Positions 38,413-44,736 of a DNA stretch of 64,000 nucleotides are shown one piece after another; position 1 is the stretch's first letter; each line of letters starts with the position of its first letter. Position numbers and translations under genes: made by a program. The notes under the pieces are model-generated. The model ran no database searches, was not told the DNA's origin, and saw nothing but the letters and a program-made list of their open reading frames with translations. The DNA comes from an uncultured Solirubrobacterales bacterium (GTDB taxonomy: Bacteria; Actinomycetota; Thermoleophilia; Solirubrobacterales; 70-9), in NCBI GenBank assembly GCA_963728045.1, contig CAVSIE010000003.1:2231-66230 (forward strand), given 5' to 3'.

Positions 38413-39651
38413 ATGAACGCAACGAGTGCCGAGGTCGCGAGCCCGCTCGCGCACCTCTCGGCGGAGCAGCTCGACGAGCTTGCCCGCGAGCTCGACGAGA
38501 TCCGCGACCGGACGTTCGCCGACCTCGGCGAACGCGACCGCCGCTACATCGAGAGCATGATCGCGATGCAGCGCCGCCTGGCGGTGATGGGGCGCGTGCT
38601 GCTGCTCGGCGCGCGCTACCGCCCCGCCAAGGTCGCCGGCGCCGCCGCGCTCTCGATGGCGAAGATCCTCGAGAACATGGAGATCGGGCACAACGTCCTG
38701 CACGGGCAGTGGGACTGGATGAACGACCCCCAGATCAACTCCTCCACCTGGGACTGGGACACCGCCTCGACCGCGGAGGCGTGGAAGCACTCGCACAACT
38801 ACGTGCACCACACCTTCACCAACATCCTCGGCAAGGACAAGGACCTCGGCTACGAGATCATGCGGATCGACCCGCAGCAGAAGTGGCGCCCCGTCTACCT
38901 CCTGCAGCCGCTCTACAACCTCCTGCTGGCGGCGTTCTTCGAGTGGGGCGTGGCGGTCCACGACCTCGACTTCGAGGCGATCCGGACGGGCCGCAAGTCC
39001 AAGGCGCAGATCAAGCGCGAGCTCGCCGGCATCCGCGAGAAGGCGAAGAACCAGGTAGTCAAGGACTACATCGCCTGGCCGCTGCTGAGCGGCTTGGCGA
39101 TGGCGGCCCTGGACGCCGGTCTCGAGGTTCGTAGTGGCGGCGGGCGGCGACGGGGCGGCCTGGCAGGGGTCCTAAAGCGGGCTCTTCGTGGCGGGGGGCG
39201 CTCCTACCGCGCGGCGGCGTCGGCAAACGCGACCGCGAACATCGCCCGCAACGTTTGGGCCTACGCGATCATCTTCTGCGGCCACTTCCCAGACCAGACC
39301 CACACCTTCAGGCCCGAGGAGGTCGAGGACGAGAGTCGTGGCGGCTGGTACGTGCGCCAGCTGACCGGGGCGGCGAACATCGAGGGCAGCCCGCTCTTCC
39401 ACGTCGCCAGCGGCAACCTCGGCTACCAGGTCGAGCACCATCTCTTCCCGGACCTGCCGAGCACCCGCTATGCGGAGATCGCGCCCCAGGTCAAGCAAGT
39501 CTGCGAGCGCTACGGGCTTCCGTACAACAGCGGCCCCTTCGGCCAACAGCTGGGGATGGTGCAGCGGACGATCCTGCGACTCGCCTTCCCGGGAGGCGCG
39601 CCGCGGCCGAAGCCCGGCCCCTACCGTGGGGAGGACCACCCGGCTCTGTGA
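38413..39651 (+). CDS. Membrane fatty-acid (acyl-CoA) desaturase, DesA3-like
   Basis: Three histidine boxes are present: HNVLH, HNYVHH and QVEHHLFP. Confidence 0.85.
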   Translation: MNATSAEVASPLAHLSAEQLDELARELDEIRDRTFADLGERDRRYIESMIAMQRRLAVMGRVLLLGARYRPAKVAGAAALSMAKILENMEIGHNVLHGQWDWMNDPQINSSTWDWDTASTAEAWKHSHNYVHHTFTNILGKDKDLGYEIMRIDPQQKWRPVYLLQPLYNLLLAAFFEWGVAVHDLDFEAIRTGRKSKAQIKRELAGIREKAKNQVVKDYIAWPLLSGLAMAALDAGLEVRSGGGRRRGGLAGVLKRALRGGGRSYRAAASANATANIARNVWAYAIIFCGHFPDQTHTFRPEEVEDESRGGWYVRQLTGAANIEGSPLFHVASGNLGYQVEHHLFPDLPSTRYAEIAPQVKQVCERYGLPYNSGPFGQQLGMVQRTILRLAFPGGAPRPKPGPYRGEDHPAL

Positions 39652-39662
39652 TATCGCTCACA
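39647..39662 (+). repeat. Direct repeat, left copy (TGTGATATCGCTCACA)
   Basis: Identical to 44720-44735. It contains the desaturase stop codon and has the form TGTGA-N6-TCACA. Confidence 0.9.
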
Positions 39663-39790
39663 TATATCCCTTCTCTGTAGAAGCGGAATCCATCCCTGAT
39701 CGGCCCTAGCTTCCTGCCTCGTCCAGATCAAAACGGCCGGGGCGCCGCGCTAACGGCCCCCGGCCTGGCACCGAAAGGCGGAACCTTCCG

Positions 39791-40036
39791 ATGCAGGCCA
39801 ACCTTAGTCCGCGCTGCGAGCGCGAGGATGAAGCGGTTCAGCGCGCCGTTCTCAGTCTCGTCCTCGCTGCGCATCCAGAGTCCCTGACGATCCCCGAACT
39901 TGCCGCCGAGATAGATGAAGGGGACACCGCAGAGCGCGCCGTGGTCGCTCTCGTCGGCGTCGGCTTGCTCGACTGCGGTGGCATCTCTGTCCAGCCCAGC
40001 GCCGCTGCTATCCGCTTCGACCAGCTCGGCGTATGA
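39791..40036 (+). CDS. Small hypothetical protein (possible winged helix)
   Basis: 81 aa. Its stop overlaps the next start as ATGA. LTIPELAAEIDEGDTAERAVVALVGVGLL is wHTH-like. Confidence 0.4.
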   Translation: MQANLSPRCEREDEAVQRAVLSLVLAAHPESLTIPELAAEIDEGDTAERAVVALVGVGLLDCGGISVQPSAAAIRFDQLGV

Positions 40037-40293
40037 CTGTCGCGGAGCGGTTCGGCGCGAACCTTCGCGACTGCCGGAAGCGAGTCGGCCTATCTCAGGA
40101 AGAGACCGCCGTGCGCGCCTCGCTGCATCGCACCGCCGTCGGGCAAATCGAGCGGGCCGAACGGGTCTGCCGCATAGACACCCTTGTGAAGCTCGCCGGG
40201 GCGCTGGAGGTTGAACCCGGCGAGCTGCTCACCCGCCTCGAATGGGAGCCGGGCGAGATGCGGGCGGGCTCCTTCAAGGAGGCACCAGCGTGA
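40033..40293 (+). CDS. XRE-family HTH protein
   Basis: LSQEETAVRASLHRTAVGQIERAERVCRIDTLVKLAGAL. Confidence 0.7.
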   Translation: MTVAERFGANLRDCRKRVGLSQEETAVRASLHRTAVGQIERAERVCRIDTLVKLAGALEVEPGELLTRLEWEPGEMRAGSFKEAPA

Positions 40294-41057
40294 CCCGACG
40301 ACTGCTCGCGTACCCTGCTCCCAGAATGGCGTCGAGCGTTCTTCCCTCCAAGGAACGAGTCAATAAGGCGGGGCGAATGCTCGCCAGATGGCTAGACGGC
40401 GAGGTTGTGCTGTCCGACAACGAATTGCAGGAGTTAATCGTCCCGGTTCTTCAATGGCGGGCGCAGCACACCTATCCGATGTCGCTCGCGATGCCGAGCC
40501 TTCGAAAATGGGCGGAGCGATACTCGACCACCGACGTTCAGCCTTCTCAGCGCTTGAAGCGGCTGCCGCAGATCATCAACAAGCTTCAGCGCCATCCCGA
40601 CATGAAGCTTGCTCGCATGCAGGACATTGGAGGCGCTCGGGTCGTGCTTTCAAGCCGGGATGAGGTCGAAAAGATGCATCAACGCATTCGGCTGTATTGG
40701 GAGATCGAGCGCGTTAAGGACTGGCGAGAGGAGGGCCGGCCAGACACCGGCTACCGAGCGCTGCACCTCATGGTGCCGAAGCGGGACGATCTCAGCGGCG
40801 AGGAGCGGATCATCGAGCTTCAGCTTCGAACAAAAACTGAGCACCGCTGGTCGCAGGTCATCATGGCCACCGGGGAGCGCCTCGGCTACTCTCTGAGAGA
40901 TGGATATGGACCGCCTGACTTGTTGCTCTACTTCAAGCTGGCGGCAGAGATCCTTGCCATCCGGGATACAGGGGCCGAGCCGGAGAGGGATCTCCGGAAA
41001 CGCTTCATCGCCGCTCGTCGGGAGGCGAGTCCCTACTTCGTGTCGAAAGAAGGCTAG
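40290..41057 (+). CDS. RelA/SpoT-domain small alarmone synthetase-like protein (toxSAS candidate)
   Basis: All four synthetase motifs are visible: RLKRLPQIINKLQR, MQDIGGARVV, GYRALHLMV and ELQLRTKTEHRWSQV. GTG 40290 overlaps the XRE stop as GTGA. ATG 40326 is an alternative start. Confidence 0.75.
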   Translation: MTRRLLAYPAPRMASSVLPSKERVNKAGRMLARWLDGEVVLSDNELQELIVPVLQWRAQHTYPMSLAMPSLRKWAERYSTTDVQPSQRLKRLPQIINKLQRHPDMKLARMQDIGGARVVLSSRDEVEKMHQRIRLYWEIERVKDWREEGRPDTGYRALHLMVPKRDDLSGEERIIELQLRTKTEHRWSQVIMATGERLGYSLRDGYGPPDLLLYFKLAAEILAIRDTGAEPERDLRKRFIAARREASPYFVSKEG

Positions 41058-41059
41058 CG

Positions 41060-41308
41060 ATGCCAGACCACCAATTTCTGCTGATTTACAACGCAAAGAC
41101 CCAGCGTCTGATCGACGCAAAGGATCTCGGTAGCGATACGCCGTTGGCTGTTGAGGCCTACGCAGAATGCGAGCGGCGCTACAGCGGCAATCAGGACATC
41201 GAGGTTCTTCTGATCGGCTCGGACTCACTCGACACGATCAAGAAGACCCATGGCCACTATTTCGGGAATGTCGATCCAGTTGAGTTCTTCCGGTCAGTCA
41301 CGGTCTAA
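41060..41308 (+). CDS. Small acidic protein, candidate cognate antitoxin/immunity partner
   Basis: The 82-aa ORF starts 2 nt after the RSH stop. No recognised domain. Confidence 0.45.
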   Translation: MPDHQFLLIYNAKTQRLIDAKDLGSDTPLAVEAYAECERRYSGNQDIEVLLIGSDSLDTIKKTHGHYFGNVDPVEFFRSVTV

Positions 41309-41373
41309 GCAGAAGACGGCCAAAGGGCTTGAGATTCCGGTCCCGACCAAAGGCGACTTCGATGACGCCCTGT

Positions 41374-41580
41374 CTAAGGTCGCTCCGCCAGCAAGTCGTA
41401 AACGCCCTGGCGAGAAAGATCGGCCTCAGAAGCGATCTGGGTGATCGAGACTCCCGCCTTCTGCGCTTGCTGACAGAAGCCCCGTAGGTCTTCGGTCGCC
41501 TGTCGCTTGGCGGCATCGGCCCTCTCGCGCCGCTTGGCAGCGCCGCGGATGCTTCGCAGGATGCTGGCCTGCTCGCTCAT
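41374..41580 (-). CDS. Small HTH protein coupled to the transposase
   Basis: ATG 41580 overlaps the transposase stop as ATGA. GVSITQIASEADLSRQGVYDLL is an HTH. Confidence 0.5.
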   Translation of the reverse strand: MSEQASILRSIRGAAKRRERADAAKRQATEDLRGFCQQAQKAGVSITQIASEADLSRQGVYDLLAERP

Positions 41581-42521
41581 CGGCCAGCCGCCGTATCGAG
41601 CAACGAGTGGAACATCGACCGCTCGCCCCGGAATCGTTCGTTGTAGCGCCAGGCGTACTCGTCTAGATAGGACTGAAGCCACTTCTGGGAGACCTTCTTG
41701 TAGGTGCCTCGCATCCCGGTCTTGAGGTTGCCGAAGAAGCCCTCGATCGTGTTCGTATGAACGTCTCCGCGCACGTAGAGGCCAGCGGAGTGATTGATGA
41801 CGCTATGGCCCGCGTATTCGCGCCCGACCGGCCTGTAGGGCCGCCAGTCGTCCGTGAAGAGGATCGAGTCCGGGTTGACGTTGGCCCGCACGGCTCCACT
41901 TAGCGGCTCACCTCGGCGCGATTTGATGATTCGCAGCTTGACCCGCCCGCCTCGCTCGACCATGCCGAGAACCGAGACCTGACGCTCGCGCCACTGAGCG
42001 GCTTCGGTCTGAGTCATCTTCGGCCCACGGGGGCGGCCATGCACACCGGTCTCGTCTACCTCGACCTTGCCCCTCAGCGGTCGGGCATCGTCTTTCATCA
42101 GCTCGTTGCGAATCTTGTTGAACATGCGCCAGGCGGTCTTGTAATGGACTCCAAGCTCCCGCTCTAGCTGCTTGGCAGATATGCCGCAGCGAGTGCTTGT
42201 CATCAAGTACATCGCGTGAAACCAGAGCCGCAGCGAAGTCGATGACTTGGCGAAGATCGTCCCCGCCGTGGGATGAACGTGGTGTCCGCAGCCGGTGCAA
42301 GTCCAAGACTGGCGGCCCTGCTTGGTCGCGTAGCGCTTGAAGACGCGCTCTGAGCCGCACTTGGGGCAATGGGCGTGTTCCCCGTCGCGGGAGTAGCGGG
42401 TGCGCCACAGATGCTCCAGGCAGGCGGCATCATCGGGGAACTCAGCCAGAAACTCGGTGACCGAGTAGTCCGAGGTCGAAGACTTGGCTCGACGCGGTTG
42501 GTGGCGATTGGCGGGCGGCAC
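41577..42521 (-). CDS. IS1595-family (ISXO2-like) DDE transposase
   Basis: N-terminal zinc ribbon CPKCGS...CTGCGH, then GISAKQLERELGVHYKTAWRMFNKIR and the VEVDETGVHG... DDE core. Confidence 0.85.
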   Translation of the reverse strand: MPPANRHQPRRAKSSTSDYSVTEFLAEFPDDAACLEHLWRTRYSRDGEHAHCPKCGSERVFKRYATKQGRQSWTCTGCGHHVHPTAGTIFAKSSTSLRLWFHAMYLMTSTRCGISAKQLERELGVHYKTAWRMFNKIRNELMKDDARPLRGKVEVDETGVHGRPRGPKMTQTEAAQWRERQVSVLGMVERGGRVKLRIIKSRRGEPLSGAVRANVNPDSILFTDDWRPYRPVGREYAGHSVINHSAGLYVRGDVHTNTIEGFFGNLKTGMRGTYKKVSQKWLQSYLDEYAWRYNERFRGERSMFHSLLDTAAGR

Positions 42522-42523
42522 GG

Positions 42524-42567
42524 TGTCAAGCTACTTGACATCAAGACGTTTGTCAAGCCGCTTGACA
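42524..42567. promoter_or_regulatory. Two 17-bp palindromes TGTCAAG-N3-CTTGACA upstream of the transposase
   Basis: Located at 42524-42540 and 42551-42567. Each half is a TTGACA -35-like hexamer. Confidence 0.5.
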
Positions 42568-42729
42568 GTCCAAGCGCTCGAACTCCATTCGAGACGCTTC
42601 CGAACGCGTGTTTGCAGCGCAAACGCTTCAGGCCCATAGCCGCCCCTGGATTGGCTATGCTCTTGAAAGCTCATCCGCCTTAGGCGGAAGGAGTTCTAGG
42701 AGCCGTCTCGAAAGGGGCGGCTCCGGTCT

Positions 42730-43221
42730 TTAGAGAGAGAACGGACCTGCGGCGACGTAATCGCGCTGAAGCTTTTCCCGCTGCCTGCTGCTTGGGCAGA
42801 ATGCCGTAACGAGCATGGCGTAAGGGTCCTCCCGCTTCCTGCGAATCCTCAAGATCACGAGGAACTCAAAGGTGGGCAAAGCCACGGCAATGCTGTTACC
42901 CCCCTTGCTGGCAGGCCGCTCTTGCTCCCAGCACAGGACACGCTCGCTGCCGCAGGCAGAAATCATGGGTCCGATCCAAGGAACTCGCTCGCACCTTCTT
43001 AGATCTGGATTGCGGTCCTCGCTCGAACGGTCTACCTGCTCTGAGATCACATGCCAGAAGCCGTCTGGCTTGCCCTTGACTACAGGCATTTTGCGGCGCC
43101 CAACATTCAGGCCAAAGAAGGACGCCTGGCGAAGGTCGCTCTCAAAGCATCGGTAGAGAGCATCGCAATAGTCATCCCAGTCGCCGTCCAGCGACACCAC
43201 CTCGGGAAGCCAATCGGTCAA
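42730..43221 (-). CDS. Hypothetical 163-aa protein coupled to the DUF3800 gene
   Basis: Its start overlaps the DUF3800 stop by 4 nt. No domain recognised. A hairpin lies just downstream at about 42695-42725. Confidence 0.55.
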   Translation of the reverse strand: MTDWLPEVVSLDGDWDDYCDALYRCFESDLRQASFFGLNVGRRKMPVVKGKPDGFWHVISEQVDRSSEDRNPDLRRCERVPWIGPMISACGSERVLCWEQERPASKGGNSIAVALPTFEFLVILRIRRKREDPYAMLVTAFCPSSRQREKLQRDYVAAGPFSL

Positions 43222-43952
43222 GCATCCACTCCTGGCCGGCCATGCCAGTGGAACAGGTTGAACTTTGCCTCCGTTTTGGCGGTGTTGAACTTGAAGCGCG
43301 CGCCGGAGCGAGCTTCGATCCGCCGAGCGATGGCCCGCTTGGCTTGGCTGCTTCCTCCGTCGCGGTTGCCGTGGGAAACGGCTCCGAGAAGAATGTCGGC
43401 AAGCTGGATGGCTTGGACTTCATGCGAGCGAACGGTTTGGACCCGCTTCACCGTCTCGCCGCTGAAGTCATGCAGGCCCGAACGAAGGATCTCCTCAAGC
43501 TTGCGGACCTTCGGGCCGCCTTGGGTGTCCTTGATATCGAGGTAGATACGGAACTCCTCATCTCGGCTTAGGAGCTGGGAGAGGAGCAGGTAATACATCT
43601 TGTAATACCACTCGTCGTGAGTCTGGGAAAAAGCGCTGTGGTCGAGTGACGTCTTGTCTGCAATAACCGCTCGAAAGCGAAGATCCGTCGTGTCGAAGAA
43701 GAAGTCGACCAGAGCCTCGTAGAGCGGCAGCCACTTCGGGGAAGCCTTGCCCCACTTGACCTCCGCCTGGGCCGGGATGCCGGCGGCCTGCTTGATTTCG
43801 CCGATTCGAGCAGCGATCTCGCGCGCTTGACCTGCGGGGACCACAAGAGCACCGAGAACCATGATCGGCTGCCCGTCCGTGGGAAGGTGGCAACTCTCGT
43901 CGCAAAAAATGCTGAATGCAGGCGTCAATGTGCGAGCAACTGTATCCAGCAC
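43218..43952 (-). CDS. DUF3800-domain protein
   Basis: N-terminal IFCDES acidic motif and C-terminal HEVQAIQLADILLGAV motif, both characteristic of DUF3800. Confidence 0.65.
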   Translation of the reverse strand: MLDTVARTLTPAFSIFCDESCHLPTDGQPIMVLGALVVPAGQAREIAARIGEIKQAAGIPAQAEVKWGKASPKWLPLYEALVDFFFDTTDLRFRAVIADKTSLDHSAFSQTHDEWYYKMYYLLLSQLLSRDEEFRIYLDIKDTQGGPKVRKLEEILRSGLHDFSGETVKRVQTVRSHEVQAIQLADILLGAVSHGNRDGGSSQAKRAIARRIEARSGARFKFNTAKTEAKFNLFHWHGRPGVDA

Positions 43953-43979
43953 TGCGCTTTGAATATCCGGAAGTACCCT

Positions 43980-44594
43980 ATGTGCGCTTTGAGCAGAGCA
44001 GGGCCAGCTAAGCAGTCGGCAGAAGCGACGGCGGTCTATCGGGCCATTGGCCGCTACACGGTCGCGTTCTCCTACCTCGTCTCTGAAATGCGCGCCGGAA
44101 TCGAAACCCGCTTCGATTCTGACTCAGAGATCGCGCAACTTGCCCTAGGCGAGGCTTTCGCGTCGCAGATCACCAACGCATTCTTCGCGATCTGCGAATA
44201 CTCGGTGGAACTGGATGACGAAGAGCGGCAGGTAGCTATTCGCCTCAAGAAAGAAGTCAATGACGCCATCAAGGAGCGCAACGACATCGCCCATGGCGAC
44301 TGGCACGTCCGTTCGTGGCGAAAGCCGGAGCCTCACATGGTCCGGACTAAGCCCGGCCGAAGAGCTGGGGCAGTCGTAGAAAAGGCGCTGCCGGTTGACG
44401 AACTTGAAGAGCTTTCGGACGCGCTCGAAGACCTGGCTGAGACTGTCATCGAGTTTGCCCTTCTCTGCTTTGCCATTCATCCCCACGCAGACAACATCGA
44501 GGGCGAGGTCCGGGTCAGGGACGTTTACCGCTTCCGGAATCACCGGGTTGTGAGAGAGGGACGCTACGCCGCTTCCCACCCCTGGGACGACTAG
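43980..44594 (+). CDS. HEPN-like protein (Rx4H motif)
   Basis: KERNDIAHGDW contains R-x4-H in a predicted helical context. The start is uncertain because only 27 bp separate it from the divergent DUF3800 start. Confidence 0.5.
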   Translation: MCALSRAGPAKQSAEATAVYRAIGRYTVAFSYLVSEMRAGIETRFDSDSEIAQLALGEAFASQITNAFFAICEYSVELDDEERQVAIRLKKEVNDAIKERNDIAHGDWHVRSWRKPEPHMVRTKPGRRAGAVVEKALPVDELEELSDALEDLAETVIEFALLCFAIHPHADNIEGEVRVRDVYRFRNHRVVREGRYAASHPWDD

Positions 44595-44719
44595 CCGGGG
44601 CTTTTCCTCCCGCTCCCAATCCGCCTCGATCTCAGCTTCTGCCTCGGCCTGTTCTAGCCAGGTTTCATCGTCTTCGGGCTCCAAAGCGCGGTCCTCAGCT
44701 TCTACAGAGAAGGGATATA

Positions 44720-44735
44720 TGTGATATCGCTCACA
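44720..44735 (+). repeat. Direct repeat, right copy (TGTGATATCGCTCACA)
   Basis: Identical to 39647-39662 and immediately follows the right IR. Confidence 0.9.
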
Positions 44736-44736
44736 T

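Follow-up and report, generated by a model that had tools for sequence, protein, structure and literature searches.

In the window, meaning the whole 64,000-nucleotide stretch of the uncultured Solirubrobacterales genome analysed here, four small genes follow each other closely on the + strand. The last two of them, ORF3 and ORF4, are assigned with high confidence to a bipartite type II toxin-antitoxin (TA) pair of the CapRel subfamily of toxic small alarmone synthetases (toxSAS), whose toxin would act on tRNA. This confidence covers jointly the identity of the pair, its mechanism and the position of the two upstream genes, ORF1 and ORF2, which are core genes of an IS1595-type transposon and stand outside the TA system. 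Zhang et al. 2022 had already noted unfused CapRel systems in Actinobacteria (PMC9712102, Extended Data Figs 1-2). The split form typical of Actinobacteria is thus already in the literature, and the pair in the window is one more, from an uncultured Solirubrobacterales lineage. The four genes are:

39791-40036, + strand: ORF1, 81 aa, small conserved protein, transposon core gene
40033-40293, + strand: ORF2, 86 aa, XRE-type helix-turn-helix (HTH) protein, transposon core gene
40290-41057, + strand: ORF3, 255 aa, RelA/SpoT homologue (RSH), an unfused toxSYNTH toxin assigned by sequence and predicted fold to the CapRel subfamily of toxSAS
41060-41308, + strand: ORF4, 82 aa, likely antitoxin of the ATcapRel/ATphRel family

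The junctions read from the sequence agree with those of the initial annotation, which had described the locus as one translationally coupled four-gene operon. ORF1 and ORF2 overlap in ATGA (ATG at 40033-40035 over TGA at 40034-40036) and ORF2 and ORF3 in GTGA (GTG at 40290-40292 over TGA at 40291-40293). The TAG of ORF3 (41055-41057) is separated by 2 nt from the ATG of ORF4 at 41060, and these two ORFs are in different frames. The GTG at 40290 has a perfect Shine-Dalgarno (SD) sequence, AAGGAGG (40276-40282), 7 nt upstream, inside the 3' end of the XRE gene, and the antitoxin ATG has its own SD, GAAGG, 6 nt upstream. The start of the synthetase is somewhat uncertain: besides GTG 40290 (strong SD, 255 aa), an alternative is ATG 40326 (243 aa), which is the start position used in the homologue P0002 (87% identical). 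Gene model P0001 (226 aa), the one on record, begins at an ATG at about 40377 and is probably too short, because it removes the N-terminal PSKxxVNKAG helix, which is conserved in the homologues, with K21 near-invariant and G28 invariant.

Judged by its sequence and predicted fold, ORF3 is a hydrolase-less toxSAS with an unfused toxSYNTH domain of the CapRel subfamily. RelA_SpoT (PF04607, 4e-15) was recognized as its sole Pfam domain, and neither the HD (p)ppGpp hydrolase domain nor the regulatory domains of long RSH proteins were found in it by Pfam. The long Rel of the host genome is a separate 814-aa frame on contig 4. The synthetase motifs are complete and invariant in an alignment of 28 homologues, namely R88-x-K90-R91, D112-x-x-G115-x-R117, G154-Y155-R156-x-x-H159, E176-x-Q178-L-R180-T181, and W187. 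Residues R88, K90, D112, G115, R117, Y155, H159, E176, Q178, and R180 are invariant or near-invariant there. R88, R117, and Y155 align with R79, R116, and Y155 of CapRel-SJ46, of which the two arginines coordinate adenine and Y155 is the G-loop tyrosine needed for activity (PMC9712102). The C-terminus of the toxin, R-x-x-V-x-P-Y-F followed by the stop, is conserved throughout the split family, and dN/dS against the nearest relative is 0.10, which indicates purifying selection.

The closest characterised relative of the synthetase is CapRel-SJ46, by sequence as well as by predicted fold, in agreement with the toxSAS type proposed in the initial annotation. In phmmer, the top matches among Protein Data Bank (PDB) sequences were CapRel-SJ46 entries 7ZTB and 9ERV (5.5e-13, residues 20-229), with RelQ and RelP next at 1e-5 to 1e-2; FaRel2 and Tas1 gave no PDB sequence match at E<=1. 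An AlphaFold2 (AF2) model computed from the homologue alignment reached a pLDDT of 93.1. The comparison of structures proposed with the initial annotation placed chain 7ZTB_B first in Foldseek (E 8.4e-14, TM 0.72, 250 columns), followed by RelQ and RelP, and FaRel2 (8PU3) at rank 50. The PADLOC model PDC-S33 matches the synthetase at 6e-46 over positions 6-219 of 349.

ORF4 was called an orphan in the initial annotation, and no Pfam match was obtained for it. According to sequence homology, it is likely the cognate type II antitoxin, a member of the ATcapRel/ATphRel family and a free domain similar to the pseudo-zinc-finger domain (pZFD) of fused CapRel. Positions 264-332 of the 349 in PDC-S33 match the 82-aa protein at 1.2e-6; the two ORFs cover consecutive parts of this model, which suggested that ORF4 corresponds to the C-terminal domain of a fused CapRel-type protein, encoded here as a separate gene. 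The profile hidden Markov model (HMM) of the 82-aa family matches residues ~266-334 of 30 fused homologues. When aligned in hhalign, the family and the C-termini of the fused set gave 97.3% with E 1.9e-11, and the fused set and CapRel-SJ46 gave 100% with E 1.2e-50 over residues 12-368, pseudo-ZFD included. Phrann gp30 (ATphRel) was aligned with the 82-aa family over the full length (96.9%, E 1.4e-10).

In the collinear alignment of toxin plus antitoxin, I47-F68 of the 82-aa protein (IEVLLIGSDSLDTIKKTHGHYF) is opposite to L335-F356 of CapRel-SJ46 (LIAVLLATNNIKSLKKAYPNYF), and its THGHYF motif is opposite to AYPNYF, which contains Y352 and Y355. CapRel-SJ46 becomes constitutively toxic when any of V338, L339, A341, A351, Y352, or Y355 is substituted (PMC9712102). 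The first position of the motif is His in gp30 (THSRYF) and in 90% or more of the split antitoxins, while fused CapRel has Tyr. In the AF2 model of ORF4 (pLDDT 80), a helix follows a beta-beta-alpha-beta core, and residues 65-67 form a short helical turn; on visual comparison, this predicted topology appears to match the published description of the pZFD. The gene is under purifying selection (dN/dS of 0.09 against the nearest relative).

One genome per species was scanned for homologous loci, which gave 80 related loci, or 81 with the window. The split form, a toxin of about 240-250 aa followed on the same strand by an ~83-aa homologue of ORF4, was found in 45-46 of the 80, and the fused form, with the toxin domain inside a protein of about 340-375 aa or longer, in 34. 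An antitoxin gene or domain is present in essentially all loci with a homologous toxin. In nearly all of the 45-46 split loci the antitoxin starts between -17 and +34 nt from the toxin stop, frequently with an ATGA overlap. All-against-all clustering of ORFs revealed no conserved flanking partner besides the antitoxin in the 81 loci; IS1595-type transposases are present in six. The question of which component neutralises the synthetase, posed in the initial annotation, is therefore not really open, because the 82-aa protein is homologous to ATphRel and to the fused pZFD and follows the toxin in 45-46 of 80 loci; by this homology it is the likely answer.

The split point is in the linker, and about 30 linker residues of the fused proteins are missing from the split forms in the collinear alignment. 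In the maximum-likelihood tree, the 34 fused proteins, CapRel-SJ46 included, were classified as a single clade (SH-aLRT 99). Outside and adjacent to this clade are the split forms, which come from Actinomycetota, Chloroflexota, and Dormibacterota and include that of the window; the split or fused state changes only twice on the tree. Phrann gp29 is far more distant, on a very long branch; the tree was computed with window homologues, CapRel-SJ46, and gp29, that is, without FaRel, PhRel2, and GRel references. The antitoxin profile was detected in 14 of 61 related genomes, and the pair is accessory in character, with patchy distribution. Cultured strains with the split pair are Rhodococcus aetherivorans DSM 44752, Klenkia terrae JCM 17786, Nocardioides sp. 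J54, and Solirubrobacter phytolaccae KCTC 29190. In the Solirubrobacteraceae locus L014:2992-3813, the toxin match ends at query residue 184 in a 273-aa frame, with no detectable antitoxin gene or domain; this homologue may be a degraded copy.

All four genes are housed in a transposon of about 5.07 kb (39647-44736, target duplications included), with these features:

39658-39687: left terminal inverted repeat (TIR), inverted pair I1, 30 nt, 97% complementary
44695-44724: right TIR, partner of the left one
39647-39663 and 44720-44736: target duplication TGTGATATCGCTCACAT, direct repeat D9, 17 nt, 100% identical
41577-42521, - strand: transposase of the IS1595 family (ISXO2-like DDE), 314 aa, DDE_Tnp_IS1595 5e-34 and Zn_ribbon_IS1595 6e-6
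41374-41682, - strand: small HTH gene overlapping the transposase gene

The 21-nt core of the TIR occurs twice in the window, with 0 occurrences expected, and G+C content is 0.56-0.62 inside the element against about 0.70 around it. Ten genomes of the same genus likewise contain the core in forward and reverse pairs, at spacings of 2.9-5.8 kb. Nine copies of the element, all from Solirubrobacterales MAGs of one genus, were compared: that of the window, seven others (L091-L097), and L005:919-4007; L003 and L091 are the same element. ORF1, the small HTH gene, and the IS1595 transposase are present in all nine and XRE in eight, with no XRE match in the L094 copy. A 14-nt GTGA-N6-TCAC, with N6 varying between copies, is duplicated on either side of each element; in the window, 17 nt are identical. 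The usual target duplication of IS1595 is 8 bp, and the duplications of this element are far longer. The insertion sites are TGTGA-N6-TCACA-like, a sequence that resembles a CRP/FNR-type operator.

The elements of the window and L097 occupy an orthologous insertion site, between desaturase and marR genes, and carry different cargo. Nothing recognisable is carried by the 2.9-kb copies, a GAF protein by L097, and CapRel pairs by the window, L003/L091, and L005. The cargo of L092 (1811-3511) consists of a NYN protein, a DUF433 protein, and a type IIG-like fusion of an N6/N4 DNA methylase with an Mrr-like endonuclease domain. The reverse transcriptase/maturase of a group II intron was annotated inside the L094 element (791-2494).

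ORF2 contains the Pfam domain HTH_3 (4.9e-11), which bears out its XRE label. Its best matches in PADLOC are 'control protein' models similar to the C proteins of restriction-modification (RM) systems (9e-15), with weak NCBIfam matches to antitoxin models of the HipB/Y4mF type and of HigA. ORF1 gave no significant match to PDB, as a profile of nine homologues, or to Pfam, with the nine members searched singly. Its description as wHTH-like could not be confirmed, as hints were sub-threshold only (HTH_20 E 0.12, DUF2551 E 0.056, ribosomal eS25 E ~0.6-1.5). Homologues of ORF1 in all nine transposon copies are 42-68% identical.

ORF1 and XRE stand beside a CapRel pair in 3 of the 81 loci only (window, L003, and L005), are absent from the other 78, and are present in six transposon copies without CapRel. 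They always adjoin one TIR. In L005, the CapRel pair occupies the opposite end, past the transposase, and converges on XRE. The toxins of the window and L003 are ~86-88% and the antitoxins 93% identical, while their ORF1 proteins are 47% and their XRE proteins 58% identical; the ORF1 of the window is closer (67-68% identical) to copies from elements without CapRel. This discordant divergence of cargo and backbone implies a cassette exchange between diverged transposon backbones. Of the proposed four-gene operon, the tight packing stands, and the genes could be co-translated; a conserved unit it is not, with ORF1 and XRE belonging to the core of a nine-copy transposon. What had appeared as a departure from the bipartite toxSAS design is an ordinary bipartite TA pair next to transposon core genes. 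Likewise, linkage of the synthetase to its neighbours holds for the downstream 82-aa gene and fails for the upstream two, and the survey of gene order found one of the three cases in a different arrangement (L005).

The slot directly downstream of XRE is occupied by the CapRel pair in the window and L003, by the NYN-domain protein in L092, and by the GAF-domain protein in L097. XRE probably controls a promoter that also reads into the cargo. In the window copy, the pair is likely co-expressed from the ORF1-XRE promoter, because the GTG of the toxin overlaps the XRE stop and has a strong SD. Tentatively, ORF1-XRE could be a controller cassette similar to the C proteins of RM systems, setting the timing and level of toxic or defence cargo placed directly downstream, although we regard this as rather doubtful.

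A dedicated four-gene toxSAS system, in which one or both upstream DNA-binding proteins are functional partners and the 82-aa protein is an accessory, would explain the tight or overlapping junctions (ATGA, GTGA, 2 nt) and the strong SD of the synthetase inside the end of XRE. The same gene order in the closest relative, L003/L091, fits it too, and XRE-type HTH proteins are common type II antitoxins, to which the weak HipB/Y4mF and HigA matches could be added. It is nevertheless very unlikely, as 78 of 81 toxin loci lack ORF1 and XRE while hardly any lacks the 82-aa gene or domain. The upstream genes also occur in six copies without CapRel, face the pair in convergent orientation across the transposase in L005, and have diverged to 47% and 58% identity between window and L003, against 88% and 93% for the pair. 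Directly upstream DNA-binding genes also recall PANGU-like systems, where a small DNA-binding protein would be an infection sensor that activates a toxSAS effector; pairs of a nucleoid-associated protein and a GRel toxSAS were described in a 2026 preprint and provide a precedent (10.64898/2026.04.06.716658). Such an arrangement is hardly credible here, where the toxin is CapRel-like, ends after the helical region, with no acidic DNA-mimic domain at its C-terminus, and is paired with a pZFD antitoxin, and where ORF1 and XRE are not co-conserved with it.

The pair could also be a toxSAS TA pair that makes a toxic nucleotide, either (pp)pApp, as FaRel and Tas1, or (p)ppGpp, as GRel/Pag1B, instead of modifying tRNA. 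All RSH enzymes share the synthetase motifs, there is no clear signature of tRNA-accepting toxSAS (10.1101/2021.04.30.441581), and RelQ and RelP are the next-best structural matches. This was judged improbable, since CapRel-SJ46, a tRNA pyrophosphokinase, is the characterised protein closest to the toxin in sequence, fold, and tree, the tested CapRel and PhRel members are translation-specific, the antitoxin is of pZFD type, a mode tied to translation-targeting toxSAS (PMC11782079), and no small alarmone hydrolase (SAH) antitoxin is encoded nearby. As for the split itself, two ORFs that lie in different frames, 2 nt apart, and match consecutive parts of one fused model, PDC-S33, might result from a recent pseudogenising frameshift or nonsense mutation in a fused CapRel, which would make the locus a decaying single-gene defence system. 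Only a minimal chance is given to this, as the sequences on both sides of the split, at the C-terminal end of the toxin and the N-terminal start of the antitoxin, are conserved in 45-46 loci from three phyla, the ~30-residue linker is gone, the genes have separate SDs and dN/dS of ~0.1 both, and split forms stand outside the fused clade.

The bipartite CapRel assignment was compared with characterised systems. CapRel of Mycobacterium sp. AB308 is neutralised by ATcapRel (Jimmy et al. 2020, PMC7229694). Compared by description, this system and other unfused actinobacterial CapRel share with the window pair the actinobacterial host, the bicistronic order of toxin and small antitoxin, the homology of the antitoxin to the C-terminal domain of fused CapRel, and a toxin that is a hydrolase-less small alarmone synthetase clustering with CapRel. 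The window pair differs from it as the cargo of an IS1595-type transposon that would be joined to the XRE gene in transcription and translation. CapRel-SJ46 from Salmonella phage SJ46 is a fused toxSAS TA system that senses phage capsid protein, and its toxin pyrophosphorylates tRNA (PMC9712102). Both in sequence and in structure it matches the window toxin best, with catalytic and ATP-site residues kept and the antitoxin collinear with residues 335-356 including Y355. Differences are its single 373-aa polypeptide in place of two genes, the toxin-domain identity of only ~25-29%, and, in the window pair, the lack of ~30 linker/anchor residues and H-x-x-Y instead of Y-x-x-Y. Neutralisation in the window pair must be in trans, and its triggering may therefore differ.

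For the Phrann pair gp29/gp30, toxin and antitoxin were shown experimentally and superinfection immunity is conferred; gp30 neutralises gp29, and PhRel and CapRel have a homologous putative antitoxin in common (PMC7229694). The bicistronic order (7-nt gap), the homology of gp30 to the 82-aa protein, and the T-H-x-x-Y-F motif are the same. However, gp29 is more distant from the window toxin than CapRel-SJ46 (tblastn 7e-5, 131 residues), and the Phrann pair is phage-borne while that of the window is transposon-borne. In FaRel2:ATfaRel2 of Coprobacillus sp. D7 (PDB 8PU3), the crystal structure of the heterotetramer has the YXXY 3-10 helix of the antitoxin inserted in the ATP donor site (PMC11782079). 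This system is likewise bipartite, with a small pZFD-like antitoxin in trans and a translation-targeting toxin, and it is the best structural model for the action of the 82-aa protein, but it belongs to another toxSAS subfamily (Foldseek rank 50), and its antitoxin has no detectable sequence homology and a circularly permuted topology. A FaRel-like architecture was rejected, as no HD/SAH domain, such as that of the SAH antitoxin of tripartite FaRel-type modules, was found by Pfam in nine neighbouring proteins. PDC-S33, a candidate system in PADLOC, evidently corresponds to fused CapRel-like proteins; its model is a single protein, and its match in the window is divided over two ORFs.

According to the mechanism proposed by analogy with these systems, the toxin would transfer pyrophosphate from ATP to the 3'-CCA of uncharged tRNAs, and translation would stop. 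The 82-aa antitoxin would bind the toxin in trans and place its H64-x-x-Y67 turn between the adenine-stacking R88 and R117. ATP would thereby be kept out of its donor site. Such an arrangement is predicted for CapRel-SJ46 and was observed in the FaRel2:ATfaRel2 crystal structure (PMC11782079); pZFD neutralisation at the ATP site is coupled to translation-targeting toxSAS (PMC11782079). The pair would be transcribed from the XRE-controlled transposon promoter and translationally coupled to XRE by the GTGA overlap and the SD. The substrate, which the initial annotation held open between ppGpp/ppApp synthesis and tRNA pyrophosphorylation, is largely answered in favour of tRNA by family placement, as representatives of CapRel and PhRel inhibit translation specifically (10.1101/2021.04.30.441581). 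By analogy with CapRel-SJ46 and Phrann gp29/gp30, the role is most likely abortive infection or superinfection exclusion and/or addiction, that is, stabilisation of the element. Such a role fits the patchy distribution (14 of 61 genomes) and the neighbouring defence candidates.

Several points weigh against this interpretation. Direct comparisons of the antitoxin with CapRel-SJ46 are weak or null: in hhalign, the 82-aa family and CapRel-SJ46 as a single sequence gave a probability of 5.8% (E 0.0066), the family HMM searched against PDB sequences did not match 7ZTB and gave only chance matches to KRas, and the single 82-aa sequence had no match among PDB sequences. The link between the two proteins therefore runs through intermediate fused homologues. 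Foldseek of the 82-aa model against PDB gave nothing significant (best E 0.38; PaaB, HORMA), with 7ZTB and ATfaRel2 not retrieved. In the equivalent of YXXY, H64-G-H-Y67, the second Tyr is invariant and the first is replaced by His. The placement in CapRel follows from PDB matches, fold, and tree, and not from the RSH subfamily HMMs of Jimmy et al.; the tree is the product of a quick search, with a very long gp29 branch. As tRNA-modifying and alarmone-making toxSAS cannot be told apart by any known sequence signature (10.1101/2021.04.30.441581), the substrate is assigned by subfamily placement. Toxicity in E. coli was only weak for the one unfused CapRel from Actinobacteria that has been tested (PMC7229694). 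Across 39600-41750, no sigma-70-like promoter was recognised and terminator-like sites were no commoner than in shuffles; such a scan is uninformative for a high-GC actinobacterium, and the transcription unit is deduced from the gene arrangement. The evidence on the window pair itself consists of sequence, synteny, and predicted structures.

Two further features lie between the transposase and the right TIR:

42730-43952, - strand: PDC-M04B/PDC-M04A pair, a second cargo module of overlapping genes (163 aa, PADLOC 2e-35; 244 aa, 9e-81)
43827-44594, + strand: 255-aa protein adjoining the right TIR, with a weak HEPN_RiboL-PSP match (E 0.018)

The PDC-M04A protein contains the Pfam domain DUF3800 (1.5e-13). 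A fragment pair 45% identical to the 255-aa protein is coded at the same end of the L097 element, and L093, L095, and L096 have an unrelated protein of about 300 aa at that end. In another genome of the same genus, a 372-aa open frame of fused CapRel type was identified by a match of the antitoxin profile at G010:C1:255618-255821 (E 6e-10), and a lone perfect copy of the TIR is about 1 kb from it (G010:C1:256723-256743). Fused as well as split CapRel may be carried by this element family.

For annotation, the locus is a caution that tight overlaps such as GTGA are no proof of a functional unit, as here they join a transposon core to its cargo. The series of H-x-x-Y in split and Y-x-x-Y in fused forms is relevant to the published model in which the ATP site is blocked, and to the triggering of systems that act in trans. 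The vehicle that swaps its cargo is more unusual than the CapRel cargo itself. If the ORF1-XRE cassette were indeed a controller of the genes placed downstream of it, the element would be a plug-and-play vehicle spreading toxSAS and other defence genes among Solirubrobacterales.

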